DNA of 64,000 nt, taken from the NCBI GenBank assembly GCA_903813345.2, contig CAIIXF020000001.1, forward strand, positions 9,052,001 to 9,116,000, in the 5' to 3' direction. Origin of the DNA: Owenia fusiformis (taxonomy: Eukaryota). The notes beneath the pieces were generated by a model, which ran no database searches, was not told the origin of the DNA, and saw only the letters and a list, made by a program, of their open reading frames with translations. Position numbers and translations under genes: made by a program. Of the stretch, positions 1 through 63,721 are shown piece after piece. How positions within the stretch are numbered: the first letter of the stretch is position 1; every line of letters starts with the position of its first letter.

Positions 1-3000
1 AAAAGTACAAATAAAATTCCACCCACGACCAAGATGATGAAGGGGATATCCAGTTCCATCCACTGTAAACTCAGCAACTGTCTTGTGTCTTGCTTCCAAT
101 GAAAATACTGATTCTCTTCATGTTGTTGTAGTATCCTCCACTGTGTTGTAGTATAATTCAACTTTGATTATGCGAAATAATCTAAGTCAAACTATCGGCT
201 CTGTAAATGGCTATCTCCTGGATCCTCCTTAATGTGTTGTAGGATAATTCAACTTTAATTATATGAAATAATCAAAGTCAAACTATCGGCTCTGTAAATG
301 GCTATCTCTTGGATCCTCCTCACTGTGTTGTAGGATAATTCAACTTTAATTATATAAAATAATCAAAGTCAAACTATTGGCTCTGTAAATGGCTATCTCC
401 TGGATCCTCCTCAATGTGTTGTAGGATAATTCAACTTTAATTATATGAAATAATCAAAGTCCAACTATCAGCTCTGTAAATGGCTATCTCCTGGATCCTC
501 GTCACTGTGTTATAGGATAATTCAACTTTAATTATATGAAATAATCAAAGTCAAACTATCGGCTCTGTAAATGGCTATCTCCTGGATCCTCCTCACTGTG
601 TGGTAGGATAATTCAACTTTAATTATATAAAATAATCAAAGTCAAACTATTGGCTCTGTAAATGGCTATCTCCTGGATCCTCCTCAATGTGTTGTAGGAT
701 AATTCAACTTTAATTATATGAAATAATCAAAGTCAAACTATTGGCTCTGTAAATGGCTATCTCCTGGATCCTCCTCAATGTGTTGTAGGATAATTCAACT
801 TTAATTATATGAAATAATCAAAGTCAAACTATCGGCTCTGTAAATGGCTATCTCCTGGATCCTCCTCACTGTGTTGTAGGATAATTCAACTTTAATTATA
901 TGAAATAATCAAAGTCAAACTATCGGCTCTGTAAATGGCTATCTCCTGGATCCTCGTCAATGTGTTGTAGGATAATTCAACTTTAATTATATGAAATAAT
1001 CAAAGTCAAACTATTGGCTCTGTAAATGGCTATCTCCTGGATCCTCCTCACTGTGTTGTAGGATAATTCAACTTTAATTATATGAAATAATCAAAGTCAA
1101 ACTATCGGCTCTGTAAATGGCTATCTCCTGGATCCTCGTCAATGTGTTGTAGGATAATTCAACTTTAATTATATGAAATAATCAAAGTCAAACTATCGGC
1201 TCTGTAAATGGCTATCTCCTGGATCCTCCTCAATGTGTTGTAGTATAATTCAACTTTGATTATGCGAAATAATCTAAGTCAAACTATCGGCTCTGTAAAT
1301 GGCTATCTCCTGGATCCTCCTCACTGTGTTGTAGGATAATTCAACTTTAATTATATGAAATAATCAAAGTCAAACTATCGGCTCTGTAAATGGCTATCTC
1401 CTGGATCCTCGTCAATGTGTTGTAGGATAATTCAACTTTAATTATATGAAATAATCAAAGTCAAACTATCGGCTCTGTAAATGGCTATCTCCTGGATCCT
1501 CCTCAATGTGTTGTAGTATAATTCAACTTTAATTATATGAAATAATCAAAGTCAAACTATTGGCTCTGTAAATGGCTATCTCCTGGATCCTCCTCACTGT
1601 GTTGTAGGATAATTCAACTTTAATTATATGAAATAATCAAAGTCAAACTATCGGCTCTGTAAATGACTATCTCTTGGATCCTCCTCAATGTGTTGTAGTA
1701 TAATTCAACTTTAATTATATGAAATAATCAAAGTCAAACTATTGGCTCTGTAAATGGCTATCTCCTGGATCCTCCTCACTGTGTTGTAGGATAATTCAAC
1801 TTTAATTATATGAAATAATCAAAGTCAAACTATCGGCTCTGTAAATGGCTATCTCCTGGATCCTCCTCAATGTGTTGTAGGATAATTCAACTTTAATTAT
1901 ATGAAATAATCAAAGTCAAACTATCGGCTCTGTAAATGGCTATCTCTTGGATCCTCCTCACTGTGTTGTAGGATAATTCAACTTTAATTATATGAAATAA
2001 TCAAAGTCAAACTATCGGCTCTGTAAATGGCTATCTCCTGGATCCTCCTCACTGTGTTGTAGGATAATTCAACTTTAATTATATGAAATAATCAAAATCA
2101 AACTATCGGCTCTGTAAATGACTATCTCTTGGATCCTCCTCACTGTGTTGTAGGATAATTCAACTTTAATTATATGAAATAATCAAAGTCAAACTATCGG
2201 CTCTGTAAATGGCTATCTCCTGGATCCTCCTCAATGTGTTGTAGGATAATTCAACTTTAATTATATGAAATAATCAAAGTCAACTATCGGCTCTGTAAAT
2301 GGCTATCTCCTGGATCCTCCTCACTGTGTTGTAGGATAATTCAACTTTAATTATATGAAATAATCAAAGTCAAACTATCGGAATTGACAAAGTTTACGAA
2401 CGTCTTATATGGCATCAACTGCTAAGTACACAAACTTCCTTCACAATTAAGTAATCAGCCTACCTAAAAATATAGCATGCGCACAACAGCATAGGCAAAA
2501 ATATTACAAGTCAAAATATGTGCCCTTGAAAATAACTAAGTTCAGTTAATGTTGAGTTATACTGATATTGAAATATCCTAAGTTCAATATTTATTCTCCA
2601 AAAAACAACAAAGTCCAAAATAATGTTTCTCCAAATATTGACTAAGTTCAATAATTTCTATCTCAAAAATAATCAAAGTCCAATTTCATGTGTTCATGAA
2701 ATTGAACTGACAGAGCTCAGAAATCTAGTATAGGCTTGATGCTGCCTCCAAACACGGTACTGAATATTCCCTCTTGAGGTATCCTCTACACAAATACACG
2801 GGTAGATGGCCAAGTTATCATCTACAGAATCACGGTGTAGCAGTCTTCCCTCTCAGGTATCCTTCATCACAAGTAGATGTCCAAGTTATCATCCACTGAA
2901 CTAAGTGCAGCTATGTATCTCCTATCTGCCTCGGGAAATATTCAAAGTCCCAACAACTTTCTACTGAAAATTGTCAAAGTCCAAAAATATTTCCTTGAAA

Positions 3001-3785
3001 AATGACTAAGTCCAACTTCACATAAAAATATGAAATTGAAACGGAGCTCTGTCCCGAACGAAAGCTAGCTGTAATCTGCTGAGCGCTCTCAGCTTGCTGC
3101 TTATATACCCAGCAGCGGTGCGGCGATGACGTCATCCACTTGTTTACATCAAATTCCAACTTCATATGATTGCAAGCTAAATAACGCCAAAATTACTCCC
3201 AAACATGAAATATAAATGAATTTAAATTACAGAGACATGAAATATAACAACAATTATGCACAGAATGACATAATAAAGAAGCTTTAATGAGTTAAAGTTA
3301 TCCTCATGAATTTAATTCCAAAATGGCCTAGCGCCGCAATTCTCAACTTGATCTCTATATATCTCGAAAAGTATACGCTAATTCTATTCCAAAGTTACTC
3401 AATCAAAACTTGAGATCGTTAGTTATACTAATCTATCAAAACTATATAGAAATAAAGGCAAACTAACCTGTATTGGAACGATATGAGGGGACGATTCAAA
3501 ATGCCGCACTAAAAACGTTGGTGGTGGTTACTGGATGTCAACTACCCAAACGTGAAACGAAAACACTAATTATATTGAAAATATACGAAATGACCGGAAG
3601 TAGCCAGTTAAACATGATAAACAATTCACATACACAATTGTTAGACCAAGTAGGAATAAAAATAATTGCCCAAATATGTGTATAACTAGCAAGCTCAACT
3701 ATAACCGGGGAGATTGCTGATGAAGTGCTGAAAACCTCCAAATACTAAGACCATAAAATTTTTAAAAAAAAAATAATTTGTTACA
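1..3785 (-). repeat. 3' LTR (truncated by the window edge)
   Basis: Identical by eye to 13254..17038; directly preceded on the minus strand by the PPT. Confidence 0.95.
133..2381 (-). repeat. Tandem array of 25 x 91-bp hairpin units in the 3' LTR
   Basis: GGATCC recurs at 220, 311, 402...; hairpin starts run from 152 to 2335 = 24 x 91 minus one 1-bp deletion near 2281. Confidence 0.97.
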
Positions 3786-4765: not shown

Positions 4766-7700
4766 TTAAATTTTCAGACTGGCATACCTAGTGACCAGAG
4801 TTTCATCCTCGAGGACGCTTCCATCTCTGGCGTAGTAACGGAATCTTATCTCCATCTTGATAGGGTTGTTTACTGTGCCCTTCTTATAAGGCTCATACTC
4901 CTCTGTTTCGACGTCCTCCTCCTCTAACCTTTCTAATACTACTTTGGCTGTTTTGGTTATTTTCTTACTCTCATCCTCATCTGAACTGGTCTCAATAATG
5001 GCAACACTTTTTGGCTCTTTCTTTGACTTTTTTCTCGGGGCACTCTTTGGCTTGGGTTTCGGGGATTTTCCCTTATCTTTATTCAGAACATACTCCTTCC
5101 CTTCCCCAATTGGTATAACAATTCTACTGTCCCCCTGACTATCGACCTTCTTGGTCCCAGTATGTTTTCCCTCTTTCTCTTTAGGTTCTACCCTCTTCCC
5201 CCATACTATGGGTGACTTACTGGCCGCCGTTGTCACAGTGTTTGAAGCCATGGTGGTAGTCGTAGAGGGTAATGCAAGGGGATCCTTAGTAACACTCTGG
5301 GAACTCACAGAACTTGTTTTGGAGGTAACTACTGAAGTCTTGGGTACAGTGGTGCAAGGAACACTCGTGGGAGTAGGGCGTGTCCCAAGGGAAGTTACAG
5401 GGGCCTTAGAAGTGACAGGGGTTACTTCAGGTGACGTTGCATGATTCTTAGAGACAATAGGGGCTGGGGCAACTACCTCAGGGGCGCTCATTAGAGATGT
5501 AGGTGGGGCCCCTAGACTAGCAGAGGGTGGAGGGAATTGAGGTCTCTTGACATCAGAAGCGGATTGCCATGTTTGTAACAACCCACTAAGTTGCTCCATG
5601 AGATTAAATCCTGTGGGTTCCTGGACTGTCGCTATGCGTTCAACTGGGAGGGAGTCTTTACTAGAGGACCTCGAAGGCCTATCCCATCGGGCGAACTTAT
5701 CCACCTTACCACTATCACTACTATTCACTCTACGCTCCTTACTGTCTCTATCTTTACGATCATTGCTTCTGTCTCTATGGTAATCCCTACTATCTCTATC
5801 TTCTCTACTGTCTCTATCTCTACTACGGCCCCTACGATCATTGTATCCATACCGGAACCTATCACCACGGTCACCGAATCTTGGTCTTGGCCAATGGGAC
5901 ATCTTGTCTTCGACCCTGGAAGCACATAAAACAGTATTTAACTCATAATCACACAAGCGTTTTGGGGGTTTCCGGACCCTCCTTCCCCACCCTTTTGATT
6001 GGCCCATAGAATCTGTACCACCCTGTTCACCCTCAATCACTCTCTTATTTTTAGACTTACTACACCCTTTTTCCTGTGTTTCACTATCTGCATCAAGTAT
6101 CACTCCTTTTTCCCTCATTTGGACTTCTCCTCGGTCGCTAGGCTCACATTTTTCATCTCTCGGCTCAGTTTCATATAACTCCACATCCATCGGGTCTGTT
6201 TTCACCTCTTTATTCATTTTGGTCTCGGGTGGGGTCGGATCATCATCATGGAGTATTTTGTCCTCAGTTTCATCACTGTCCACTCTCATCTTTTCTCTCT
6301 GTTTCATCTCGGACGAATCCAAAGTCATTGGGTCGGATGGAATCTCCTCCAACTTCAGTTTGGTCTCATCCGAAGGTATTTTCCAGTCTTCTGGAAGTTG
6401 GCTCTCGTATGGTTTGAGTTGATCAAAATGGACCACTTTGGGTGTCCGCTTTCCCCACTCACAGATGCGATAGGTGACATCAGACATCTTCTGCAAAACC
6501 TGAAATGGACCTAACCAACGACATTGCAATTTAGGAGAAATACCTCTTTTCTTGTTATTGTTTAAGTACCATACTGCATCACCAGGATTATATCCTTTAC
6601 CAACCACACGTCGATCATAAACATCTCGTTGACGGATTGCTGACTTTTTTAACACCCTGCTTGCCCTTTCATGAGCATCTTTCAGGCCTTGTCGAAGTTC
6701 AATCACATAGTCTGTCTTCATTTCTTCACATTGTGGATCCTCTATCATCCAAGATACTGGAACAGATAATTCCCGCCCAAACATCATCATAGCTGGCGTT
6801 TCCCCGGTAGCATCATGTGTAGATGTGCGATACGCCATGAGAGCAAATGGAATCTGTACATCCCAGTCAGACTGATGGACCTCGGGTTGCAACAACTTAG
6901 CAATAGTGTCAAGTAAGGTCCTGTTATATCTTTCGACCATCCCGTCACTCTGTGGGTGGAAAGGGGTGGTTCGGGTCTTGTGTATCCCCATCAACTTGCA
7001 GACTTCTTGAAAAACATGAGATTCGAAGTTCCGACCCTGGTCGGAGTGCAAGTCTGCGGGAACTCCGAATCTACACACAACTTCTGTAACCAGCTTGTCT
7101 GCCACTGTAATGGCTTCTTGGTTAGGAAGGGCAAAGGCTTCTACCCACTTGGAAAAATAGTCAGCACACACCATGATCACCTTGTTCCCTCTAGACGTCT
7201 CGGGAAATGGTCCTAATATGTCCACTGCATACCTCTCCATGGGACTACTTACCCCTTGTATCTGCAATGGAGCTCTTCTGGCTCGCAGAGGTTTTCTTCT
7301 CTTTCCACACGTGTGACAGGTTCGCACGACCCCTCTGACATCAACCCTCTGTTCGAACCAATAAAATCTCTGCCTACTTTTCAAAAAGGTCCTACGGATT
7401 CCAAAATGCCCCGCTACCTTGTTAGTATGACACATTTCTAGAACAACCAGCTTCATCGGGGATGGTACAACAATTTGCAAATGACCATGCTCTCCACTTG
7501 CATCCTCCCATCTTTTACAAAGTACATCCTTGTGAATTTCTAGCTGGTTCCAAAGGTGCCAATAATGTTTGGTTGCTGGTGAGTTAAAACTGATTTTATC
7601 CCAAATAGGCCTAGTGTTAGAGGAACGCAACGCCTCTAATATGGGCTGTATCTCAGGGTCCTGTTCCTGTGCCTCTGCAATCTTTTCCAACGTCCAAGTT

Positions 7701-10700
7701 GGTTCAATAGCAACCATAGCAACTTGTAATTGAGACACATCTTCTTGTTGAGCTACCTCATCACAGTGAGAACACTGTGTACAGGGTCTCCGAGACATAA
7801 CATCGGCGTTGGCATGTCGTGGTCCAGGTCTGTACTCCAATTGAAAGTTGTATTCTTGAAGCACCTCTAACCATCGAGCCAATTGTCCCTCTGGGTTCTT
7901 AAAATTCGTCAACCATCTCAAGGATCCATGGTCTGAGCGAATGGTGAATCGTACACCATATAGATATTGACGAAAATACTTCGCGAAGTGCACCACAGCC
8001 AGGAGTTCCTTCCTGGTTACACAGTAGTTTAACTCTGGTCCATTTAGTCGGTGACTGGCATAATATATAACTCTTTCTTCGTTGTCTTGTATCTGGGATA
8101 AAACAGCGCCAACAGCTTCATGACTGGCATCTGTGTCCAATATGTAGGGACAATCATCCCTTGGAAAAGCCAAAATCGGTGCTGTAGTTAACCTTTCCTT
8201 TAAAGTAATGAAGGCTTCTTCAGCTTCAGAGTTCCACATAAACCTCTGGTTCTTCCGTGTTAACTTGTGCAAAGGTCCTGCTATTTCAGCAAAGTTTTTA
8301 ATGTGTCTCCTGTAATATGATGCTCCTCCCACAAACTGCCGGACCTGCTTGACAGTCTTTGGAGTGGGATATTGTAGCATAGCTTCCACTTTCTTGGGAT
8401 CGGGTGCAATGCCCTCCCCTGAAACTACATGCCCTAAGTAGTTTACCTGTGTCTGAAGTAGAGTACACTTCTTTGGTTTCAACTTCAATCCAGCTCTACG
8501 TAATCGCCCAAATACCCCTTCTAAACGTTTTAGAGCTTGTTCAAATGTAGGGGAGAAAGAAATGACGTCATCCAAGTAAACTAAGGACCCTTCCTTGTTC
8601 AATCCGCTAAGGACTTCTTCCATCAGTCTACAAAAAGTAGAGGGTGCGTTTGCCAAGCCAAATGGCATTACAGCCCATTGGAACAGTCCCCCTCTCACAG
8701 TAAATGCAGATTTTTCCTGTGCTTCTTTGTCAAGTAATATTTGCCAGTAACCACTGGCTAAATCCAGGGTGCTGAAATACTTTGATCCATTCATCATGTC
8801 TAACGTTTCGTCAATCCGGGGGATAGGAAAAGCATCTTTCTTGGTAACGCTATTGAGCTTCCTATAATCCACACAGAATCTCCAAGACCCGTCCTTTTTC
8901 TTTACTAATACAATGGGCGATGCCCATGGACTCTGTGATGGCTTAATTATACCTCGTCGCAACATGTCTTCAATGAGCTCATTCACTTCATCTTGTCGAC
9001 TTCTGGGCAACATTCGGTATCTTTGTCGAATAGGAGTAGTATCCCCTGTATCAATGTTGTGTTCTACTAATGTAGTCCTCCCCAAATCATCATCACTTTG
9101 GGCAAAGATATCCTTATTTCCTCTTAGTAGCTTCTGTAATTGATCTCTCTGGGTCTGATTAAGTCCACAAGAACTCCGTTCAAACAAGTCCTGCATAAAC
9201 TCTGGTAATGGCAAAAGTGAATCCTCAGTCCCTTCTGAACCTGTAAGCGGGCAAATTATTTCTTCAGTGACTTTATCGAGATCTACTTGATAGGTGTCCT
9301 CATCTACAGAGGTAATGACTCCTAATACAGCCCCTTCGGGAATGGATATTTCAAAGTCATTGTGATTCCTTACTTCCATATAACTACTTTGACTTGTATC
9401 AGCTAAGGTTGTCACAATTTCGAGTTCTTCTAAATCTTCGGCATCTAAATAAGGTTCAATAATACCCATCCCAGTGAGTGGCTCCTTCCATTGAACTTCA
9501 ATAAATTGACCAGAAAAGGCAGGTAAGATCACTTCATGGGCAGCATTATAACATAACGAAGATTGTCGTGGATCAAACATTTGCCTTAAATCTGATAATA
9601 TATCGTCCTCCAACTCTAAACTTTCTGGTGTATTAGGAGGCGTTTCTGGAATGATGATTGGAGTAGCTGGAGGGCTATCAGGAAATCGCATTCCTTGTTC
9701 AGGTGATGGAGTTTCAGGTACAAGTATATATTCCAACTGTTCCCTGGCATCTTCAAAATCCTGAGAATCCTCAGAGTCCTCCATACTCTCCTCAGGAATA
9801 GATGAAGGGCTATCGGGGAACTGGATCCTGGCTACAGGTGGGGTTTGTGTGGTACCTTTAAATTTTGCTCTCTCTTTACAACTGGATCCACTATCAACTG
9901 ATTCCACTTGTTTTCCACAAGCCTCAGAGATAAAATCATCTGCTTTTAGATCAGAACTGTAACTCTTATCCAATTTGGCCATTGACCCCACACTGCAACT
10001 TCGAGAATTGTCTGTTTCCCTCGAATTCAACTTCATTTCAGCATCCTCATAACTGTCTGTTGAAATATTGGGTTTGTCCTTGGTCCCAAAGCTAACTGTG
10101 CATCGGTGGTAGTCCACTATCGCGCCTGATGCAGAAAGATAGTCACTTCCCAAAATTCCTTCGAAGTCAATTGGGGCTACTACAATCTCCAACTCCTCTT
10201 CATGTCCATCGATACTCACCTTACCGAATATGGCTCCTAAAGTGGCCAATGGTTCCCCATCAGCCTGCAGCATAATATGAGTAGCTGGTATAAGTTTAGG
10301 ACGATAGCGAGGGTTCATCCTTCTGTAAACTTCACTGTTTACAATGGTGCGTGCAGCACCAGAGTCCAACAAAAAGGCTACCTCTGCACCACAAACATCA
10401 CCATGAGCGATAACTTTACGGACATCTTTTGGGGACTCATTCTTTGAAACATCTCTCCCAAAATGAGAGAGGAATTTAACTGGAGCGGCTTGGCGTGACT
10501 CAGCTTGTGCTTCTTTAGCTCGCTCCTCCATTCGCTTCCTGCTATAACACTCTGCAATAACATGACCTGGTTTATGGCAGAAAAAGCACTCCAATTTTCT
10601 GTATCGACTTCCCTTTATTTCGCAATTGGTCTTCGGATTATCACCATCAGACTGGATTTTCGTCTCCATCAGCTGAATCCTCTTCTCCAGATTTTTGCGG

Positions 10701-12559
10701 TCTTGTTCAGCATTTTTACGATCTTTTTCCAGGTTTTTTCGATCTTCCTCTTGCTTGTTGCCTAATTCCTCTAACAGCCTAGTGAGTTTCTTCAAATCAT
10801 CATCCTTGTCTTCTAAAGCATTAACACGGCTATATCTGGACTTTTGTCCTTTCCTCATTCTTTCCGATTCCACATAAGATTCTTCTCTCAGGGCAATTTC
10901 AATTGCCTTGTCTAACGTTGTGCATTCTTTATTATGTATTGCTCGGCGTATATCATCCTCCGCTATCGCCTGCTCAAAACTACGCCTTGCTAATCTATCC
11001 TGGGCTGACCTACTCATCTCAGGATATGCCAATGCTGTAAGTCGCCTGATATCCTGTCCTAAAGTCTGTAAAGATTCTTTTGGCTTCCTCATTCGCCCAA
11101 TTAGTTCGGCCTCATATACCTCTGCTTTTCCTCCAGGCCCATATCTTTTCTCCAAGGCTAAAACCAATTGATCATACGTATACCCAGCTTCCATTTCCAA
11201 CACGATTTGTTGGGCAGTCCCCCGCAGACTGGTAGCTAAGTACTCATTTTTCTCTTCTGTGGTCCAACTGTTGGCCTTAGCACATATTTCAAAATGGGCT
11301 CGATACTCCTGCCAAGGAGTAGTGCCATTATATGTCTCCGGCTTGATCCTATTCTTGGAATTGGACATCTGGTTAAACAATTTCATAAGGTCCATGGAAT
11401 CACCAGGTATATTATTATCAACCTCTCTTTTCCTCTCACTAGTAGAATCATCTCTTGAAGAACGCGTTTCAAATCTACCTTCAACTTGACGTATCCCGTT
11501 ATCACTCCCATATTCATGCTCCATCCGTTGACCTCCCATCCTGTGCATAGACTGGCCTCCTGAAGCACAAACGTCCTCTTGCTTACAGGCAGGATCTCGC
11601 TGGTCTCTACCAGTTGATTTCTGTGTAGGAGTGACATGAATTCTGTCTTGTCTTTCCAGTTTCCATGGTTTCATTCTTGATGGAGTAGGAGGTTCAGGTG
11701 TAAAACAATCTGTGTTCTGCGGACAGTGCCTCATGGGCAAAGGAGGTGACCGTTGTGCTCCCCTTCGAGCTCCACTTGGAGTTGCATACAAATCATTACC
11801 AATAGCATTCCCTGTATACAAAACACCATTGGACTTGGTCTCTGTACTAACTGCTACTGTAGTACTCTGTATATGCTGCAGGATCGCCTGCAACTGATGA
11901 TCTTGTTTCTCCTGTCTTTCCTGTTGTCTTTCTTCGCTTATTTGTCGTTTTTCTTCTCTTATTTGTTGTTGCTCTTCTCTAATTTGTTGCATATGTCTGT
12001 TCTCTTCCATTTGCTTTGCTATTAGAGTCATACTATGAGTCTGTATTTGTTGGGTCTCTTTAATATCATCCAACTGTTTCTGTTGCGCCTCTGTAACATT
12101 CCCAAAAACAGACATCTGATCTCGCAACTGACCTTCCACCATAGTTAACTCTTGTTTCACTATATCCTCTGTCTGGCTCTTTTTCAAAGGCCGATTCATA
12201 ACAGTAGAGGTTATTGGAAAATGTCTGGCAGTATTCCTTTTATCCAATCCCAGGGGATTTGCTGGAGTCTCTAGATTAGTCAATCCTCCTCCAGACCAAT
12301 ACCCTGTAGTTACATTGCTGGGTAAAACTCTTTTCTCAGTATCCACCTTTGGATCCTTTGATCTAGCGCCTGCACCAAGAGGGGCCTCCTTTGATGCATC
12401 AGAAAATGTGGCGCCATCTTTGTCCAATGGCTGAGTTGTATCATTAGCTCCCGGATTATTTATTTCCATTGGATTTGTCTTCATGAATACAGTAGTCTCC
12501 CCTTCAATCTCTATATCCTCATCATCCATTGGATAGGGAAGATTGGACTCTGGATCCAT
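4766..12559 (-). CDS. Gag-Pol polyprotein, 2597 aa: capsid, CCHC knuckle, aspartic protease, RT, RNase H, integrase with GPY/F motif, plus a long C-terminal extension
   Basis: PETYNGTTPWQEY..HFE capsid; CFFCHKPGHVIAEC; LLDSGA; YLDD; LDTDAS; H..H..CHTC; AVDILGP / SDQGRNF / GMVERYNR; WLGPFQV...VHFDQLKPY. Confidence 0.97.
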   Translation of the reverse strand: MDPESNLPYPMDDEDIEIEGETTVFMKTNPMEINNPGANDTTQPLDKDGATFSDASKEAPLGAGARSKDPKVDTEKRVLPSNVTTGYWSGGGLTNLETPANPLGLDKRNTARHFPITSTVMNRPLKKSQTEDIVKQELTMVEGQLRDQMSVFGNVTEAQQKQLDDIKETQQIQTHSMTLIAKQMEENRHMQQIREEQQQIREEKRQISEERQQERQEKQDHQLQAILQHIQSTTVAVSTETKSNGVLYTGNAIGNDLYATPSGARRGAQRSPPLPMRHCPQNTDCFTPEPPTPSRMKPWKLERQDRIHVTPTQKSTGRDQRDPACKQEDVCASGGQSMHRMGGQRMEHEYGSDNGIRQVEGRFETRSSRDDSTSERKREVDNNIPGDSMDLMKLFNQMSNSKNRIKPETYNGTTPWQEYRAHFEICAKANSWTTEEKNEYLATSLRGTAQQIVLEMEAGYTYDQLVLALEKRYGPGGKAEVYEAELIGRMRKPKESLQTLGQDIRRLTALAYPEMSRSAQDRLARRSFEQAIAEDDIRRAIHNKECTTLDKAIEIALREESYVESERMRKGQKSRYSRVNALEDKDDDLKKLTRLLEELGNKQEEDRKNLEKDRKNAEQDRKNLEKRIQLMETKIQSDGDNPKTNCEIKGSRYRKLECFFCHKPGHVIAECYSRKRMEERAKEAQAESRQAAPVKFLSHFGRDVSKNESPKDVRKVIAHGDVCGAEVAFLLDSGAARTIVNSEVYRRMNPRYRPKLIPATHIMLQADGEPLATLGAIFGKVSIDGHEEELEIVVAPIDFEGILGSDYLSASGAIVDYHRCTVSFGTKDKPNISTDSYEDAEMKLNSRETDNSRSCSVGSMAKLDKSYSSDLKADDFISEACGKQVESVDSGSSCKERAKFKGTTQTPPVARIQFPDSPSSIPEESMEDSEDSQDFEDAREQLEYILVPETPSPEQGMRFPDSPPATPIIIPETPPNTPESLELEDDILSDLRQMFDPRQSSLCYNAAHEVILPAFSGQFIEVQWKEPLTGMGIIEPYLDAEDLEELEIVTTLADTSQSSYMEVRNHNDFEISIPEGAVLGVITSVDEDTYQVDLDKVTEEIICPLTGSEGTEDSLLPLPEFMQDLFERSSCGLNQTQRDQLQKLLRGNKDIFAQSDDDLGRTTLVEHNIDTGDTTPIRQRYRMLPRSRQDEVNELIEDMLRRGIIKPSQSPWASPIVLVKKKDGSWRFCVDYRKLNSVTKKDAFPIPRIDETLDMMNGSKYFSTLDLASGYWQILLDKEAQEKSAFTVRGGLFQWAVMPFGLANAPSTFCRLMEEVLSGLNKEGSLVYLDDVISFSPTFEQALKRLEGVFGRLRRAGLKLKPKKCTLLQTQVNYLGHVVSGEGIAPDPKKVEAMLQYPTPKTVKQVRQFVGGASYYRRHIKNFAEIAGPLHKLTRKNQRFMWNSEAEEAFITLKERLTTAPILAFPRDDCPYILDTDASHEAVGAVLSQIQDNEERVIYYASHRLNGPELNYCVTRKELLAVVHFAKYFRQYLYGVRFTIRSDHGSLRWLTNFKNPEGQLARWLEVLQEYNFQLEYRPGPRHANADVMSRRPCTQCSHCDEVAQQEDVSQLQVAMVAIEPTWTLEKIAEAQEQDPEIQPILEALRSSNTRPIWDKISFNSPATKHYWHLWNQLEIHKDVLCKRWEDASGEHGHLQIVVPSPMKLVVLEMCHTNKVAGHFGIRRTFLKSRQRFYWFEQRVDVRGVVRTCHTCGKRRKPLRARRAPLQIQGVSSPMERYAVDILGPFPETSRGNKVIMVCADYFSKWVEAFALPNQEAITVADKLVTEVVCRFGVPADLHSDQGRNFESHVFQEVCKLMGIHKTRTTPFHPQSDGMVERYNRTLLDTIAKLLQPEVHQSDWDVQIPFALMAYRTSTHDATGETPAMMMFGRELSVPVSWMIEDPQCEEMKTDYVIELRQGLKDAHERASRVLKKSAIRQRDVYDRRVVGKGYNPGDAVWYLNNNKKRGISPKLQCRWLGPFQVLQKMSDVTYRICEWGKRTPKVVHFDQLKPYESQLPEDWKIPSDETKLKLEEIPSDPMTLDSSEMKQREKMRVDSDETEDKILHDDDPTPPETKMNKEVKTDPMDVELYETEPRDEKCEPSDRGEVQMREKGVILDADSETQEKGCSKSKNKRVIEGEQGGTDSMGQSKGWGRRVRKPPKRLCDYELNTVLCASRVEDKMSHWPRPRFGDRGDRFRYGYNDRRGRSRDRDSREDRDSRDYHRDRSNDRKDRDSKERRVNSSDSGKVDKFARWDRPSRSSSKDSLPVERIATVQEPTGFNLMEQLSGLLQTWQSASDVKRPQFPPPSASLGAPPTSLMSAPEVVAPAPIVSKNHATSPEVTPVTSKAPVTSLGTRPTPTSVPCTTVPKTSVVTSKTSSVSSQSVTKDPLALPSTTTTMASNTVTTAASKSPIVWGKRVEPKEKEGKHTGTKKVDSQGDSRIVIPIGEGKEYVLNKDKGKSPKPKPKSAPRKKSKKEPKSVAIIETSSDEDESKKITKTAKVVLERLEEEDVETEEYEPYKKGTVNNPIKMEIRFRYYARDGSVLEDETLVTRYASLKI

Positions 12560-12604
12560 CCTAAATCAGTATAATGCACCTCGGGCTTATATCTTCAGAC
12601 AATT

Positions 12605-12623
12605 AATCCCACCACTGCCACCA
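12605..12623 (-). other. Primer-binding site complementary to the tRNA-Leu 3' end
   Basis: Minus-strand TGGTGGCAGTGGTGGGATT is the complement of ...AATCCCACCACTGCCA-CCA, the metazoan tRNA-Leu(TAG/AAG)-type 3' end. Confidence 0.9.
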
Positions 12624-13105
12624 GTGTAACAGTTTGGCCTTTTTTGTGGATATGTGGTAGTGTGGCTAATAAAAAGACCACTGTTTAGTAAACGGTGTTT
12701 ACTTGTGGATTGCACGGCACACGTTAAATGTGCTTTGTCCCTAAAGAAATAAACAGAATATATAATTTTATATATATATAATACAAAACAATATATTGTG
12801 GCGTTTATAAGCCCAAATAAGATGTACATGCAATTTCAAATGTAATGTAAGAATATTACGGTGTTATTATTTCTCTTAAAACTCACAACTCAAAAGTCCA
12901 TATGAGCTAATAATAATTATCACTGATAAAATAATATCCAGAGTCCATATAAACTGATGATCACTATATAACACTGTTGTATTCCGAATATGCAAAGTTC
13001 ATGTAAATTGTACCACTTGTACGTCTTGTATTGTTATTGTATCTTGAACCTGGAATAGTAAGCTGAGCGTAACAAAGTCTTGTCTCCTAATTTTGGGAAG
13101 CAACT

Positions 13106-13312
13106 TTACACAAAATTCATAGTACTCATGCTGAAGCTTGGTGTGGATTTTAAAGCAGGGGTTGGCGTAGGGGGTATTGGAACTGCTGGAACAGGCGCTT
13201 CTTCGTTTTGAATCTTAATACACACCTGGGAGCATATGACTGACATCAGACATAAAAGTACAAATAAAATTCCACCCACGACCAAGATGATGAAGGGGAT
13301 ATCCAGTTCCAT
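13106..13312 (-). CDS. Putative 68-aa single-pass membrane protein encoded inside the LTR (the second copy starts at 59 and runs off the window)
   Basis: MELDIPFIILVVGGILFVLLCLMSVICSQVCIK...PVPAVPIPPTPTP: ~22-aa hydrophobic segment, three juxtamembrane Cys and a Pro-rich tail; more GC-rich than the surrounding LTR. Confidence 0.55.
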   Translation of the reverse strand: MELDIPFIILVVGGILFVLLCLMSVICSQVCIKIQNEEAPVPAVPIPPTPTPALKSTPSFSMSTMNFV

Positions 13313-13385
13313 CCACTGTAAACTCAGCAACTGTCTTGTGTCTTGCTTCCAATGAAAATACTGATTCTCTTCATGTTGTTGTAGT

Positions 13386-15634
13386 ATCCTCCACTGTGTT
13401 GTAGTATAATTCAACTTTGATTATGCGAAATAATCTAAGTCAAACTATCGGCTCTGTAAATGGCTATCTCCTGGATCCTCCTTAATGTGTTGTAGGATAA
13501 TTCAACTTTAATTATATGAAATAATCAAAGTCAAACTATCGGCTCTGTAAATGGCTATCTCTTGGATCCTCCTCACTGTGTTGTAGGATAATTCAACTTT
13601 AATTATATAAAATAATCAAAGTCAAACTATTGGCTCTGTAAATGGCTATCTCCTGGATCCTCCTCAATGTGTTGTAGGATAATTCAACTTTAATTATATG
13701 AAATAATCAAAGTCCAACTATCAGCTCTGTAAATGGCTATCTCCTGGATCCTCGTCACTGTGTTATAGGATAATTCAACTTTAATTATATGAAATAATCA
13801 AAGTCAAACTATCGGCTCTGTAAATGGCTATCTCCTGGATCCTCCTCACTGTGTGGTAGGATAATTCAACTTTAATTATATAAAATAATCAAAGTCAAAC
13901 TATTGGCTCTGTAAATGGCTATCTCCTGGATCCTCCTCAATGTGTTGTAGGATAATTCAACTTTAATTATATGAAATAATCAAAGTCAAACTATTGGCTC
14001 TGTAAATGGCTATCTCCTGGATCCTCCTCAATGTGTTGTAGGATAATTCAACTTTAATTATATGAAATAATCAAAGTCAAACTATCGGCTCTGTAAATGG
14101 CTATCTCCTGGATCCTCCTCACTGTGTTGTAGGATAATTCAACTTTAATTATATGAAATAATCAAAGTCAAACTATCGGCTCTGTAAATGGCTATCTCCT
14201 GGATCCTCGTCAATGTGTTGTAGGATAATTCAACTTTAATTATATGAAATAATCAAAGTCAAACTATTGGCTCTGTAAATGGCTATCTCCTGGATCCTCC
14301 TCACTGTGTTGTAGGATAATTCAACTTTAATTATATGAAATAATCAAAGTCAAACTATCGGCTCTGTAAATGGCTATCTCCTGGATCCTCGTCAATGTGT
14401 TGTAGGATAATTCAACTTTAATTATATGAAATAATCAAAGTCAAACTATCGGCTCTGTAAATGGCTATCTCCTGGATCCTCCTCAATGTGTTGTAGTATA
14501 ATTCAACTTTGATTATGCGAAATAATCTAAGTCAAACTATCGGCTCTGTAAATGGCTATCTCCTGGATCCTCCTCACTGTGTTGTAGGATAATTCAACTT
14601 TAATTATATGAAATAATCAAAGTCAAACTATCGGCTCTGTAAATGGCTATCTCCTGGATCCTCGTCAATGTGTTGTAGGATAATTCAACTTTAATTATAT
14701 GAAATAATCAAAGTCAAACTATCGGCTCTGTAAATGGCTATCTCCTGGATCCTCCTCAATGTGTTGTAGTATAATTCAACTTTAATTATATGAAATAATC
14801 AAAGTCAAACTATTGGCTCTGTAAATGGCTATCTCCTGGATCCTCCTCACTGTGTTGTAGGATAATTCAACTTTAATTATATGAAATAATCAAAGTCAAA
14901 CTATCGGCTCTGTAAATGACTATCTCTTGGATCCTCCTCAATGTGTTGTAGTATAATTCAACTTTAATTATATGAAATAATCAAAGTCAAACTATTGGCT
15001 CTGTAAATGGCTATCTCCTGGATCCTCCTCACTGTGTTGTAGGATAATTCAACTTTAATTATATGAAATAATCAAAGTCAAACTATCGGCTCTGTAAATG
15101 GCTATCTCCTGGATCCTCCTCAATGTGTTGTAGGATAATTCAACTTTAATTATATGAAATAATCAAAGTCAAACTATCGGCTCTGTAAATGGCTATCTCT
15201 TGGATCCTCCTCACTGTGTTGTAGGATAATTCAACTTTAATTATATGAAATAATCAAAGTCAAACTATCGGCTCTGTAAATGGCTATCTCCTGGATCCTC
15301 CTCACTGTGTTGTAGGATAATTCAACTTTAATTATATGAAATAATCAAAATCAAACTATCGGCTCTGTAAATGACTATCTCTTGGATCCTCCTCACTGTG
15401 TTGTAGGATAATTCAACTTTAATTATATGAAATAATCAAAGTCAAACTATCGGCTCTGTAAATGGCTATCTCCTGGATCCTCCTCAATGTGTTGTAGGAT
15501 AATTCAACTTTAATTATATGAAATAATCAAAGTCAACTATCGGCTCTGTAAATGGCTATCTCCTGGATCCTCCTCACTGTGTTGTAGGATAATTCAACTT
15601 TAATTATATGAAATAATCAAAGTCAAACTATCGG
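13386..15634 (-). repeat. Tandem array of 25 x 91-bp hairpin units in the 5' LTR
   Basis: Same units, same variant order and same 1-bp deletion as the left array. Confidence 0.97.
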
Positions 15635-16324
15635 AATTGACAAAGTTTACGAACGTCTTATATGGCATCAACTGCTAAGTACACAAACTTCCTTCACAAT
15701 TAAGTAATCAGCCTACCTAAAAATATAGCATGCGCACAACAGCATAGGCAAAAATATTACAAGTCAAAATATGTGCCCTTGAAAATAACTAAGTTCAGTT
15801 AATGTTGAGTTATACTGATATTGAAATATCCTAAGTTCAATATTTATTCTCCAAAAAACAACAAAGTCCAAAATAATGTTTCTCCAAATATTGACTAAGT
15901 TCAATAATTTCTATCTCAAAAATAATCAAAGTCCAATTTCATGTGTTCATGAAATTGAACTGACAGAGCTCAGAAATCTAGTATAGGCTTGATGCTGCCT
16001 CCAAACACGGTACTGAATATTCCCTCTTGAGGTATCCTCTACACAAATACACGGGTAGATGGCCAAGTTATCATCTACAGAATCACGGTGTAGCAGTCTT
16101 CCCTCTCAGGTATCCTTCATCACAAGTAGATGTCCAAGTTATCATCCACTGAACTAAGTGCAGCTATGTATCTCCTATCTGCCTCGGGAAATATTCAAAG
16201 TCCCAACAACTTTCTACTGAAAATTGTCAAAGTCCAAAAATATTTCCTTGAAAAATGACTAAGTCCAACTTCACATAAAAATATGAAATTGAAACGGAGC
16301 TCTGTCCCGAACGAAAGCTAGCTG

Positions 16325-16400
16325 TAATCTGCTGAGCGCTCTCAGCTTGCTGCTTATATACCCAGCAGCGGTGCGGCGATGACGTCATCCACTTGTTTAC
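16325..16400 (-). promoter_or_regulatory. Probable LTR core promoter (copy at 3072..3147)
   Basis: Minus-strand TATATAA at 16360..16354; perfect CRE palindrome GATGACGTCATC at 16378..16389; forkhead site TGTTTAC at 16394..16400. Confidence 0.65.
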
Positions 16401-18070
16401 ATCAAATTCCAACTTCATATGATTGCAAGCTAAATAACGCCAAAATTACTCCCAAACATGAAATATAAATGAATTTAAATTACAGAGACATGAAATATAA
16501 CAACAATTATGCACAGAATGACATAATAAAGAAGCTTTAATGAGTTAAAGTTATCCTCATGAATTTAATTCCAAAATGGCCTAGCGCCGCAATTCTCAAC
16601 TTGATCTCTATATATCTCGAAAAGTATACGCTAATTCTATTCCAAAGTTACTCAATCAAAACTTGAGATCGTTAGTTATACTAATCTATCAAAACTATAT
16701 AGAAATAAAGGCAAACTAACCTGTATTGGAACGATATGAGGGGACGATTCAAAATGCCGCACTAAAAACGTTGGTGGTGGTTACTGGATGTCAACTACCC
16801 AAACGTGAAACGAAAACACTAATTATATTGAAAATATACGAAATGACCGGAAGTAGCCAGTTAAACATGATAAACAATTCACATACACAATTGTTAGACC
16901 AAGTAGGAATAAAAATAATTGCCCAAATATGTGTATAACTAGCAAGCTCAACTATAACCGGGGAGATTGCTGATGAAGTGCTGAAAACCTCCAAATACTA
17001 AGACCATAAAATTTTTAAAAAAAAAATAATTTGTTACAGTCAGGAGTAGATAACTGGGCCAGACGGGTTTGGTTAGATTACAGCCTGTATGAAACTGAGT
17101 ATGCTGTTTGATTTGGTTTGCCAAATTGCCTGTATTTCATTAAATGATAACTGACTTACCGGATGCAAATACTCCGAGTGTCAAATATAACACACATGAG
17201 ACCACAAACACCCCTAGCACAGCTTTGAACCGAGACATCTCTGGTGTATTCTTTAGGTTTGTCGCAAACTGCTGAAAAAATTCTTGTTTATTTTTTCGAA
17301 ATTCATAAATTTAATGTTTTTCAATGCTTCCGTTCGGTCTATGACGTTTTACCTTCTAATGCACATTCACTGGCACCTCTTCTACATTTAACTCGTTTGG
17401 AATGTGATGATATGTGTTCTAAAGGCCTGTTTTATCATAAAATATGATGAAAATTTGATGAATCAGAAAATGACGAGGAACTCACCAAAATAATAACCTT
17501 ACAACGGGTGTTACTAAATACCACCTAGGTGTCCCCTTGGGCACCTGGATTTATAATTCCATTTTAAACCACGTACATATTTTATATATAGTATTTCCTT
17601 TGTCACATATTAACTTGACATATAATAGACTTGAAAAAATAATTTGTAGTCGAGAATATTGCAAAGAAGATTCGAAAATAAAATGTCAAAAGTTTTATTA
17701 TTAGAAAAATGGGCACCTGGAATTTTGTTCATATGTATGGTCACTTATTTATAGTAATAAAACACCATTTATGCTCAAGTGTGCATTTATATTTGAAATA
17801 TATATATTATTCTTACTTTAGTTGCCAAAATAGTGAATTTGTAGCATTTTAAAGTGAGCAAATAATGAAATAGATTTCTATTATCCTAACAAATGACTTT
17901 TTCGATAGGCCGCGCCTGGAGAGCCTTAAAATTTAAGGCTCTCTAGCCAAATGGGTTACCAAAATGCTAAAGAGCCTTAAATTTTAAGGTTCTTTAGCAT
18001 TTTGGCTAAAGAGCCTTAAATTTTAAGGCTCTTAAGGATTTTGATAGCCAATTCTGCTAGAGAGCCTTAA

Positions 18071-41400: not shown

Positions 41401-44400
41401 TTTTACTATGATGGTATGTATTTGGTACAATTAAGAGTTTTCGAAAAGTGAATACCAATAAAATAGATGGATTCAACTGTGTTACACCAATCAGATTACA
41501 AATATTTATATACATGATCTTTTGTTGAATTGCATTGATGCTGTGTAAAGATACACATGTAATGCATATAAATTGGTATACATAAGTCTTCTTGTTATAG
41601 TATACCTACACTTTATTTTTTTACAATGTATGCTTGTATTTTCCAGAGTTTATACGAGAGGAGATTGTAGTTGTTCTTGCTATTGTGTTTGTTGGCTTCT
41701 TCAACCAGGTGGCAATGGAGGTAATATTATTCTTGCATGTCCATAAACATTAAACTGTCAATATGTCAGCACAAGTACCAAAAAGAGAAAGAGTATTACA
41801 AAACACAGCAATAAATGAGAACATTGCTTTATGAGAAAAGCATAACCCCATTATCCCACTTTATGATCTAACACACAAAGTATCAGTGATTAGTACCCAT
41901 CTCCACTACATTATAGACACTTGTACCATGTTCTCACTAACTCCTTATTATTATCCCACTGAACAAAGTTCATAGGGATATAGAGAAGCCATCTATCTGT
42001 TCATCAGTCTGTCCATTTTTGTGACTGGGCGATAGGTCGAATACCGGTTGACAGATATGGTTCAAATTTAATAGACGTATGCCTTATGCGTTGTAGGACC
42101 TCTGTTGGGAGAAGGAATTTTCAAAATGGCCACTCGATTCAAAATTGCCACCATTTTTTGTAAGAAATGTAATCTATGATAAATCAAATAGAAGAAATTT
42201 TCAAGATGGCCTCTAAATTCAAAATGGCCACCATTTTTTCATTAAAAATGTAATCTTTGATAACTGAAATACCAATCAATAGCACTCATGAAGATATTTT
42301 CAAAATCAAAATGGCCACTGAATTCAAAATGACCACCATTTTTCTGAAAAATGTTGGAATCATGATTAATCATTGTTATCATGCTACTCAAGTTTTTGCA
42401 AAATACAAATTCCTATGTTGCTTAGAAATATATACATTTTTTACACTGAATTTACAATATAAACATATATAACAAATATTCTAAAATTGAGACACTCGGC
42501 CCCCTCTTTAGGGCCGGTCCAAAATTCAAACATATAACAAACTCCAGGGAGCTTTATCTGGGAAGTGTGTCCTAATACAAGCATATTTACCTTGTTACTG
42601 ATAATATATCAGACCATGTCAGATTTGTAACACGATGTGTTATTTCTTGTCTAATGTATCATAAGACATTCATATTTCATGTTCTCTGTATCATACAGGA
42701 TTTACAATGATTTCACACTTATAAGAGCATTTTTATCAGAACTTCTGAATTGGCTCTTGTATAATACTAATTTTTTATTTATTTATAACCTCGGGGCCTG
42801 GATTTTGGATTTATGAAATGGAGAGTTTTTTTTAAAATTAGCATTTAGCATTCTTTGTATTAACATACAATTTTGAATACCGGTATATGCATCCTCCTAA
42901 GCAGGTGTCCAGAATCTGTAACTCTTTCTTCCCCCTGCTATAACCAATTTGGAAGCGCCCGATTTAACTGAATCACATGATCTAATTACGTGCAATGACT
43001 TATACATGATTTTGTCGCAGTGTTGCGACAGCCAATCATATTGCGAGTTCTTAATCGGGGGAAATGCTAACTGCTTATCGCAGGGGGTAAAAAGGAAGAA
43101 TATATTCTGGATTTTGAAGCCCTGTGATTGGAGGATGCGGTATATGCTTTGTCTTAAATTGGCCAATACATGTAGTTCTAAACAGTTGATGTATTAGTAT
43201 TGTTACTTCCTGAGATGCCAACACTATTGTCTTTTCTACACAAGTACTTAGCTAAATGTCTGCCACATGATGTTTCAGATATCATAGACAAGATTTCCTT
43301 TCTAAAACTGGGTCCACCTATGCAATACAATAGAAAGTTGATGCCATGATTAGTATGGTAAAACATGTTACATATGGCCCAATGTGTGTTGTACGTTTTA
43401 TAGTCCGGGTTGAGATTATTGTTACGATTGGGGTACCATTGTTCCTTAAAGGACATTAGCAACACAATTGGTAGTGTACACCCAATGAACATAAAGTTAC
43501 AAAGTAACAATGTCAAAGTCAGAGATGTAAGCTTCTTTTTTGTACCTATCCCCATTTTGTTTCGCAGTATAAGTTTTCCAATAATGGCGAAGTTTGAAAT
43601 AATCATGATGGTGAAAGGTAGATATGTTGCTATGGTACCATCAACCCAGACCCACTGAGATCTCCAGAAATGTTGATATTGTCCAGTAAAACTGCATTCC
43701 ACATCATCAATGTCATGTATCCAGAGTATGCTCAAGTTCAGGCATATAATACCAGGTATCAGTACAAGCAATGAAATGAATGATACTTTTATTCCACATA
43801 ATGATTTTGCCTTAAGTGGGACAAACACTGCTATGATCCGTTCAAATGTTACCAAAACAAGAATCCAAGCTGACTTAAATGTACACAGACATACAAAAGA
43901 AATGTTAGAATTTTGCACCCAGATGATGTACTATAAGGCTGAATATCAGTGTTTATATAACGCAGCCAGTTTGGAACAAGGCCCATCCATAAAGCCCCCA
44001 TATCAACGCATGCTAAGGCTATGAGGTACACAGATGTTGTCCTAGATCTCATCTTCCTTCTGCAAAGAACACAAAGGCTTAAAGCATTTCCAAATGTACC
44101 AAATACAATGATCAATGGTGACCAATAGTTCCAGATTTTATTTGAAGTTTCAGTTGCTTCAATTGTTTTATATCTGGGTATATTTGTCTCTGGTCTTTGC
44201 CTCGTAACATTAGTTGTTGAATTGTCATTTGATTCAGGATTCAAAATAAATTTTGGTGGTTCTTCTATCCTTAAAACTCGTGGCTGTTTTACTCTTGAAA
44301 CACGATCAGATCCTATTGGCCTATTAATCTCTAAACTTATATTTATTGGTGTGTCTGTCACACGTAAAGTCACATTGCCATTTTCATTCCAGGTTGTAAC

Positions 44401-62759: not shown

Positions 62760-63302
62760 ATGAAGAAGGGATTTTATGCCTTGATTGTACTGACCCTGCT
62801 AGTGGATCCTATATGTAGCATGGTGATGTTACCCGGTGGTTATGCCATGCCTAAGATATACACCTTTCAAGATGGGGACATACTACTCGGGGCACTCTTT
62901 CCAGTACATGCCTTTAATGAATCCTCCAACAGCCCTGGAAAATGTGGTGCCATCCAAGAACAAGATGGCATCCAAACTCTTGAGGCGATGTTGTTTGCGT
63001 TAGATGAGATCAACAATGACCCTGATTTCCTACCAGGTTTCACCCTGGGTGCAATAGCCTTGGATAGCTGCGACAATGAAATACACGCTGTAGATCAGGC
63101 AGTTGAGTTTGTGAAAGTCATGGTTTTTAAGTTATCTGAAACTGTGGATGAACTCCCCTTTGAATGCAGTGGAAATGACAGTGCGCCACATCTTAAACCT
63201 GAAGCAAAGACACTGGCAAAGATATCTGGGATCATTGGAGGCTCCTCCAGTGCTGTTTCCATACAGTTAGCGAGGCTCCTGAGGATCTTCAAAGTACCAC
63301 AG
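62760..63302 (+). CDS. First coding exon of a metabotropic glutamate receptor-like class C GPCR (signal peptide plus start of the Venus flytrap domain); the gene continues beyond the window
   Basis: GDILLGALFPVH, LEAMLFALDEINNDPDFLPGFTLG..LDSC, IIGGSSSAVSIQLARLLRIFKVPQ followed by CAG|GTGAGG. Confidence 0.9.
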
Positions 63303-63369
63303 GTGAGGCTTTTTCAATACTATATACAAACTGTACATGTTCTTATAATTCAAGATTCAAGTTATTATA

Positions 63370-63721
63370 CTGGGTGTCCCAAGAAATTGACCCCAAAGGA
63401 AACAGGAATAAATCCTTTTTTCTTCAACACAAAAAGTTTTCACATAATAAAGAGAATTTATTTTTCCAATAAACAGAGAGAAAATTTACAGAAATTTGTA
63501 GATTACTTAGTGAGAAATTTGACATTTTAGATGACATGCTCATGATTTGAAATTGAAAAAATGGGTGATGATTGATACTAAAAGAGTTACTAATACGGTT
63601 ACTTAAGTATAGGGTTACTTAATGAAACTTTTAAATGTTTATGATAATTAGATTGTCTGTCAGATGACCAAACTTCAAGAATATTCCATGTTTGTCGCGG
63701 CACAATCTTTTGGGTACCCTG
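63370..63721. mobile_element. Tc1/mariner-like MITE
   Basis: TA-flanked CTGGGTGTCCCAA ... TTGGGTACCCTG. Confidence 0.5.

Follow-up and report, generated by a model that had tools for sequence, protein, structure and literature searches.

A predicted small membrane protein encoded by an optional cassette within the long terminal repeats of env-less Gypsy elements in Owenia fusiformis

How retroelements that lack an env gene reach the germline or other cells is an open question, for which sORF2 of the MDG1 retrotransposons (412, Mdg1 and Stalker) provides one worked example. The accessible part of the report on these elements describes sORF2 as a single-pass open reading frame (ORF) of roughly 70 amino acids (aa), located upstream of gag in an env-less Gypsy group, whose product lies with capsids at protrusions into the oocyte (PMC11952523). 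In that same text, the authors were unable to show either fusion in culture or a genetic requirement; they looked for sORF2 only in consensus sequences of arthropods and filtered for myristoylation, found the MGxxxS/T myristoylation motif in four of six D. melanogaster sORF2 proteins, and note that non-myristoylated variants were missed (PMC11952523). That filter would also pass over the protein described below. Here we describe a second membrane microprotein of an env-less Gypsy element, unrelated in sequence and shown to be under selection, that is encoded in an unusual place, inside the long terminal repeat (LTR). The element lies in a 64,000-nucleotide (nt) stretch of the Owenia fusiformis genome (contig CAIIXF020000001.1, positions 9,052,001 to 9,116,000), hereafter the window. 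Small membrane proteins in env-less LTR elements are known; what is new is a sequence-unrelated accessory protein of this kind carried as a gain-and-loss cassette in the LTR.

The initial annotation of this stretch, which had noticed the small ORF, did not mention sORF2, its closest precedent. As far as the available text on sORF2 allows a comparison, both are sense-strand ORFs of about 70 aa that encode a single-pass protein, lie upstream of gag in an env-less Gypsy host and show the signature of purifying selection. There is no sequence or motif link between them, and the protein described here has instead a C-terminal motif that is conserved and three cysteines that are invariant. Whereas sORF2 is located outside the LTR, the small ORF is inside it and is therefore duplicated in each element and present in solo LTRs. 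LTRs are usually treated as non-coding, and the genes that they can hold are missed by gene callers. The remark in the annotation that LTRs normally encode no protein has a known exception in mouse mammary tumour virus, whose superantigen is much larger and occupies U3. In the part of the source available, that superantigen is an LTR-encoded type II membrane glycoprotein of a retrovirus and acts on T cells; it shares with the protein described here the property of being a membrane protein inside an LTR, but the latter measures 68 aa and comes from a Gypsy LTR, whose transcribed 3' part encodes it.

The element reads on the minus strand, and its parts are as follows.

12625..17038, minus strand: 5' LTR of 4,414 base pairs (bp) with TGTAACA...TGTTACA ends, from LTR comparison and a 4-bp target duplication, TGAC.
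1..3785, minus strand: 3' LTR, which extends beyond the window edge; an identical small-ORF copy lies at G000:C1:9051856-9052059.
4766..12559, minus strand: single gag-pol ORF of 2597 aa with protease, reverse transcriptase (RT), RNase H and integrase, without an env family match.
12606..12623, minus strand: primer binding site, adjoining the 5' LTR end, which we take to be of the tRNA-Leu type.
13387..15634, minus strand: array of 24.7 units of 91 nt, upstream of the small ORF.
16354..16387, minus strand: candidate promoter, a TGACGTCA box plus a TATA box about 3 kilobases (kb) 5' of the small ORF, predicted from sequence only.

The TG...CA LTR ends, target duplication, primer binding site and protease-RT-RNase H-integrase order are those of a Ty3/Gypsy element, and the closest named pol matches are unclassified Gypsy polyproteins at about 50-56% identity. 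All 4,413 bases compared between the 5' and 3' LTRs are identical and the 4-bp target duplication is preserved, from which we conclude that the insertion is very young. The small ORF is present in both LTRs of this intact element. The annotated absence of env agrees with a Pfam-type domain search of the gag-pol ORF, which found no env family match, and the annotated position of the small ORF inside the LTR, directly after the array, is confirmed: its start lies 74 nt 3' of the 91-nt array and its stop 481 nt before the LTR end.

Within the LTR, the following features belong to the small ORF of the window copy, a member of what we call lineage A.

13106..13312, minus strand: small ORF, 68 aa, predicted single-pass membrane protein, with its ATG at 13312 and a TAA ending at 13106, indicated by selection and RNA.
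13295..13312, minus strand: residues 1-6, a short acidic N-terminus without Gly2, from the aligned lineages.
13220..13294, minus strand: residues 7-31, predicted transmembrane (TM) helix with F7, L10, F17, C21, C27, V30 and C31 invariant, from alignment and AlphaFold2.
13154..13210, minus strand: residues 35-53, an acidic patch and a variable Pro-containing linker, from alignment of five lineages.
13109..13153, minus strand: residues 54-68, conserved C-terminal motif with L54, S56, N66 and F67 invariant, from alignment.
13316..13322, minus strand: TTTACAG heptamer, in lineage A only, with no acceptor use seen.

In the 68-aa protein, six N-terminal residues, two of them acidic, precede a hydrophobic segment that begins at residue 7, extends to about 26-31 and has cysteines at 21, 27 and 31. 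An acidic patch and a Pro-rich linker come next, and the C-terminal end is again hydrophobic. Kyte-Doolittle means over 19 residues reach 3.13, and AlphaFold2, run on a 10-row alignment, places one helix at residues 4-37 and leaves the tail at 40-68 disordered (mean pLDDT 66.7). The modelling thus predicts a one-helix architecture, and the annotated single TM segment, short N-terminus and three membrane-proximal cysteines are borne out by sequence, hydropathy and fold prediction alike. A four-copy complex prediction scored 0.01, with no controls folded, and is not used as evidence. Length alone would be unremarkable, since ORFs of at least 60 aa occur in 53% of 2000 Markov-simulated non-array LTRs. 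With equal hydrophobicity, such ORFs occur in about 0.1% of the simulations, and the small ORF is more than a chance hydrophobic ORF.

The 500-megabase host genome, searched with the small protein, gave 59 matches without an internal stop in the matched part, 56 of which were read fully: 19 in lineage A, 5 in B, 1 in C, 17 in D and 14 in E, with the two LTRs of an element counted separately. Start codon, length (67-68 aa) and stop are kept in 51 of these 56 copies; of the five altered ones, two have lost the initiating ATG, another two are shifted by one base at the beginning, and the last differs at its end. Among the other three matches, L066 is frameshifted and L065 is a chance hydrophobic match, and two further copies are broken, L083 by an internal deletion and L103 by stops. 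Identity of the small protein among the five lineages is about 40-68%.

The distribution of these differences is that of a coding sequence. We computed the ratio of nonsynonymous to synonymous divergence (dN/dS) on nine representatives, which give 32 between-lineage pairs that are not independent of one another. It is 0.08-0.29 in the 29 of 32 pairs in which dS is defined, with Fisher p <=1e-4 in all 32. Mismatches fall at codon positions 1, 2 and 3 in numbers of 123, 80 and 198, and frame +0 alone is open in all five lineages. Among lineages A to D there are no gaps in the ORF, whereas the 200-nt flanks have 6-16 gaps and lie mostly near shuffled identity. Conservation of the ORF in sister families, which had been proposed as a check, is therefore found. 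These data show that the small ORF is a protein-coding gene under purifying selection in five sister lineages. The reading that it has no protein function, whether because the ORF arose by chance or because a conserved element of the RNA or DNA has remained open fortuitously, would be compatible with the long leader and its 10 upstream ATGs, with the several lineages that have no ORF, and with the within-lineage dN/dS, which is uninformative (0.4-1.8 on few changes, p>0.1). The third-position excess, the lack of indels and the retention of start and stop across a saturated synonymous distance all speak against it, as does a simulation of neutral substitution: of 20000 runs each, the ATG and open frame survive in only 340 with 0.7 changes per site and in 55 with 1.5. 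We regard it as highly improbable.

Between lineages A and B, the small ORF has a dS of 0.73-0.79 and a dN of 0.18-0.19, and the RT has a dS of 0.88 and a dN of 0.013. Because the two dS values are close, the small ORF appears to have travelled with pol; dN/dS for this comparison is about 0.24 for the small ORF and 0.015 for the RT. As judged by these rates, the gene has been inherited with pol and is constrained yet fast-evolving. In a tree of ORF DNA, E stands on its own branch apart from A, B, C and D, and the Gag tree, in which of these lineages only A, D and E are included, likewise separates E from A and D. Each ORF-bearing lineage has its own tandem array, with units of 91, 99-100, 126, 43-44 and 227-234 nt; these arrays end 25-93 nt before the ATG, the exception being the B LTR L024, which has no array within 1.5 kb. 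The candidate promoter, TGACGTCA with the TATA box, is common to lineages A, B and D. Lineage E is Pol-less, yet keeps Gag, protease and the small ORF.

Constraint is unevenly distributed along the protein. Invariant residues are M1, E2, L3, D4, F7, L10, F17, C21, C27, V30, C31, P52, L54, S56, N66 and F67. Mean pairwise identity among the five lineages is highest in residues 1-6 (0.87), falls to 0.55-0.59 in the helix and Cys region and to its lowest value, 0.31, in the linker (35-53), and is 0.62 in the last 15 residues. In every one of the five lineages, residues 1-6 include two that are acidic and none that is basic, and in four of the five, one to three basic residues stand just after the helix. 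The C-terminal motif (54-68) abuts the stop codon in every lineage, and no match to a known motif was recognised in it. The polyproline tail of the initial annotation is real in the window copy to the extent that lineage A has seven prolines within residues 38-53, in runs no longer than two. The other four lineages have three or four tail prolines, the linker is the least conserved part and Pro-richness is mainly a feature of lineage A, so polyproline was rejected as a family motif.

RNA from the family is present in the three raw sequencing runs that we sampled, 6-12% of each aligned to 12000-13385, which yielded 46, 35 and 60 reads. In all three runs, most bins across the ORF have a depth of about 8-17, with one run dipping to 0.3 at the ORF-start bin. 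Nearly all ORF reads have one orientation, with the first mate on the plus strand, and would represent sense RNA provided that the libraries follow the usual stranded design, strand being inferred here without a control gene. Most reads carry alleles of other lineage-A copies (at 13207, 9 of 12, 6 of 6 and 12 of 15), so the expression is that of the family and not necessarily that of this insertion. Junction reads at 13061 (three, four and three per run) indicate that ORF-less LTRs are also expressed. We read the small ORF, with its coding selection, RNA and optional presence, as an accessory gene of one Gypsy sub-clade, located in the transcribed 3' part of the LTR.

The annotation had also pointed to an acceptor-like TTTACAG 3 nt before the ATG. 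The heptamer is where it was said to be in the window copy, and it is also present inside the 91-nt array units. As a splice acceptor it was rejected: it is confined to lineage A, and at this site none of the three RNA runs has a splice joint or a cluster of loose ends, the reads continuing towards the array; splicing into array units further upstream would fall outside the aligned stretch. An upstream ATG at 13372-13374, 62 nt 5' of the ORF, opens a 16-codon frame that ends just before the small ORF; it occurs in 3 of 19 lineage-A copies and is absent from over half of the RNA reads.

The optional presence of the gene is seen most directly at the LTR ends of its relatives.

13062..13386, minus strand: presence/absence cassette of about 325 nt that holds the small ORF, absent from homologous A-prime and L112/L113 LTRs.

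The genome contains 61 exact junctions of an LTR end with the primer site. Twenty adjoin ORF matches, and the remaining 41, all of which we examined, comprise 7 of lineage A-prime, 13 of lineage F, 1 of G, a single D copy that has a deletion, and 19 in which no related Gag start was recognised; one of the 41 retains a truncated ORF remnant. The 3' ends of A-prime LTRs are 90-97% like those of lineage A but have the array joined straight on, with about 325 nt missing, and the autonomous family L112/L113 has the same cassette-less junction. When a small-ORF profile was run against 20 RT-bearing relatives (64-88% RT identity), in 14 of which the LTR ends were mapped and scanned, only L122, of lineage D, matched. 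The Gag tree (supports 95/89 and 94/92) separates E from A and D and places it with the ORF-less lineages F, G and H. Ancestral presence followed by several losses and exchange of the cassette by recombination both fit this pattern. Because intact multi-copy relatives do without it, the small ORF is dispensable for retrotransposition. Near-identical LTRs with and without the cassette (A versus A-prime and L112; E versus G) provide natural controls in one genome.

Several observations concern the relatives themselves. LTR modules are swapped between families: L112/L113, with an RT only 75% identical, have LTRs 77-85% like those of lineage A and no cassette, and the LTR end is 97% identical between the Pol-less E element L043 and the autonomous ORF-less G element L108. 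Pol-less elements (L043, L045-L048, L050, L052-L058) have an LTR-to-LTR spacing of about 6-7 kb and a Gag-protease frame of roughly 880-920 aa; they include Pol-less E with the small ORF and Pol-less A-prime without it, in several copies of each type. Copies only 4.6-8.2 kb apart (G000:C12:6938105 and 6944712; C8:33504636-33518208; C245:7439-12285) suggest tandem or nested elements that share LTRs. The idea that ATG-free arrays are an adaptation for translation of the ORF was rejected, since the array of ORF-bearing E has 43 sense ATGs and those of ORF-less L109/L110 have none.

Searches beyond the element family returned no homologue of the small protein: none among 256 word-index candidates (lengths 36-119 only) and none in collections of 1.84 billion representative and 5.8 billion sequences. 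Metagenome and viral contigs gave 189 and 97 pattern matches, none confirmed as a homologue; none of 52 BFVD folds reached E<=0.001, a sequence search of the PDB gave one match at E 0.32, and no relative of the Gag was found in metagenome contigs. This absence is weak evidence, because the searched collections are poor in unannotated animal repeats. We found no description of an LTR-encoded membrane ORF of this kind in the literature covered, which leaves out subscription journals and Repbase, and the accessible portions of PMC13524379 and PMC8220671 contain nothing on LTR-encoded small membrane ORFs.

Pfam likewise gave no match at cut-off, only sub-threshold matches to the helix and Cys stretches of host single-pass proteins. 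TMEM52 (PF14979) was matched by 8 of 10 members, the copy in the window not among them; the best of these matches scored 20.3 bits (E 0.00057) against a gathering cut-off of 26.4 bits and covered the helix region only; other weak matches were to a cadherin tail, EphA2 and TMEM132. Atlas language-model look-alikes are led by TMEM52, SMIM36 and stannin, with SPAR also near the top (0.89-0.94) and coronavirus E weaker (0.83-0.87); the consistency check of the Atlas marks its family call as probably wrong. The Pfam matches to these host proteins stay below the cut-offs and end before the conserved C-terminal motif. That all of them cover the helix and following stretch of host single-pass proteins, and that the cassette has sharp presence/absence edges, would suit the capture of a fragment, comprising helix and short tail, from a type I membrane protein of the host, serving as a decoy, for host benefit or to exclude rival elements. 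No host parent gene was found, however: L065, L104 and L125 match the hydrophobic stretch only, without the conserved ends, and the 1.84 billion representatives hold no source. An invariant N-terminus that begins at the Met is also better suited to a stand-alone gene, and we consider such a capture quite unlikely.

A different comparison is with small viral membrane proteins that act in the producing cell. In the parts of the sources available, coronavirus E has a short, hydrophilic, negatively charged N-terminus, one TM segment, TM-adjacent cysteines and a hydrophilic tail (PMC6537279), and viroporins measure 50-120 aa (PMC12197650), a range that includes this hydrophobic 68-aa protein with its one predicted TM helix. 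As far as those excerpts describe them, coronavirus E, HIV-1 Vpu and influenza M2 resemble it in size, in the short acidic N-terminus, in having one helix with cysteines beside it, in a tail with a terminal motif and in being dispensable. The small protein could accordingly be an acylated single-pass host modulator of the Vpu or coronavirus E kind, with no part in transfer, acting as a pore or through a tail that re-routes or degrades a host restriction or trafficking protein. Its dispensability and expression apart from gag would suit an accessory counter-defence gene, its fast evolution relative to the RT would suit a host-facing role, and the Atlas look-alikes point the same way. On the other side, the helix is poor in the polar residues expected of a pore and its one-face conservation is not significant (conservation moment, p=0.11); there is no CoV_E or other Pfam match at cut-off and no fold match, the coronavirus E scores, below 0.9, are leads only, and the protein is encoded by a retroelement that is not enveloped. 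On balance, we judge a host modulator to be somewhat unlikely, though not far behind the adaptor reading that follows.

By analogy with sORF2, we tentatively favour a role as an acylated membrane adaptor with an sORF2-like job in capsid transfer. Most of the small protein would come from RNA initiated at the LTR promoter and terminated within the LTR, beyond the ORF, and such LTR-only RNA would allow solo and 3' LTRs to express it apart from gag-pol. It would insert without a signal peptide, its charge distribution and general knowledge of membrane proteins placing the acidic N-terminus outside and the tail in the cytosol; palmitoylation may occur on cysteines at the inner helix end, C21, C27 and C31 being invariant and without an adjacent di-cysteine. 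The last 15 residues, carried on the variable linker, may bind a partner, which could be the Gag capsid or a protein of the host's trafficking machinery or cytoskeleton. Capsids gathered at the membrane in this way could be helped to leave the cell or to pass to a neighbour, for example a germ cell. An unrelated protein would thus do an sORF2-like job as an adaptor rather than as a self-sufficient fusogen, the former being more likely because there is almost no ectodomain to touch another cell. Since the product would act in trans, ORF-less offshoots could free-ride on it, which would account for the existence of such offshoots, expressed in the same samples. More generally, these microproteins of the repeated, transcribed part of giant LTRs might represent a new, independently evolved class of env-free transmission factors that let capsids move between cells, defined by acylation, a near-zero ectodomain, LTR-only RNA (including that of solo LTRs), cassette swapping and a division into producers and free-riders, an extension that we think unlikely.

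A number of results weigh against the adaptor proposal, among them the healthy ORF-less families and the missing gag reads. RNA depth drops from 12990 to 12800 and reaches about 0 at the gag start (12000-12560), and a transfer factor should be co-expressed with Gag. The drop suggests that RNAs terminate within the LTR beyond the small ORF, although a repeat filter cuts reads at 12755-12790, full-length RNA 3' ends or solo LTRs would give the same fall in depth, and 3' bias could be another cause of the missing gag reads. A short transcript that stops before gag is also described in the available text on MDG1, where it encodes sORF1; no second small conserved ORF that could be an sORF1-like partner was noticed. 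Expression is low, at 35-60 reads per 11-13 million records, and the leader from the candidate promoter, about 3 kb long with 10 upstream ATGs, leaves the route to translation unexplained. At 41 of the 61 LTR-end junctions, the last 1600 nt of the LTR hold no intact hydrophobic small ORF, and L105, L107, L108 and L109-L113 are intact autonomous relatives without it. This repeated absence in close relatives differs from the stability of sORF2, which at least 80% of the MDG1 consensus sequences contain, in the part of the source available (PMC13486581).

The protein itself also departs from sORF2 and from the reovirus FAST (fusion-associated small transmembrane) proteins to which the initial annotation had likened it. 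Residue 2 is an invariant Glu, with no MGxxxS/T motif, which speaks against myristoylation; the ectodomain is about 6 residues in all five lineages, compared with about 30 with an amphipathic motif in FAST and sORF2; there is no Tyr directly after the TM segment in any of 10 aligned rows; and in lineage C the helix is followed by no basic residue. A juxtamembrane polybasic region is also lacking, residues 28-42 holding 0-3 basic and 2-4 acidic residues, as the annotation had itself recognised in qualifying its analogy. The likeness to p10, p14 and p15 that stands, in the available parts of the sources, is that of a small single-pass protein with membrane-proximal cysteines, which in p10 are palmitoylated (PMC12945298, PMC11952523). 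Since it lacks the polybasic stretch, the N-terminal glycine and the roughly 30-residue ectodomain with its fusion motif, is shorter than the roughly 80-200 aa of FAST proteins and has no conserved Pro motif, the FAST analogy itself does not hold (PMC11952523, PMC12945298). A FAST-like fusogen of a new sequence class, able to fuse membranes alone, would fit an env-less element and could be one of the non-myristoylated variants that the sORF2 search would miss (PMC11952523). The same missing features and the acidic to balanced juxtamembrane region make it, in our estimation, very unlikely.

A few further observations were made in the course of the analysis. Transcribed LTR parts of the sub-clade (window 12625-16330, minus strand; L025, L045, L062, L105, L107, L108, L112 and L122) show a sense-strand bias for DRACT/GGACT, the consensus for N6-methyladenosine. 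Sense to antisense counts of GGACT are 29:1 in L122, 26:1 in L025 and 15:0 in L062, and those of DRACT are 56:1 in L105; the counts are inflated by the arrays, though the units differ among lineages, and the array in the window is balanced (DRACT 24:25). No sense bias is seen in the outgroups L109, L110 and L117-L120, and the motifs are evenly distributed between strands in host flank, U3 and gag-pol. The gag-pol frame in the window continues, at 4766-6400, for about 540 aa beyond the last integrase-family match as a low-complexity tail with Arg/Asp/Ser-rich, Thr/Ser-rich and Lys-rich parts, in which no TM or env-like part was seen. In L118, an intact ORF for a 350-aa seven-TM receptor-like protein lies about 1.9 kb upstream of the LTR end (2508-3560, oriented) and may be flank. 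Elsewhere in the window, two features belong to G protein-coupled receptors.

43178-44472 and 46612-47892, minus strand: tandem single-exon rhodopsin-type receptor genes, one of them split into two frames.
62760-63530, plus strand: exon of a class C receptor ligand-binding domain.
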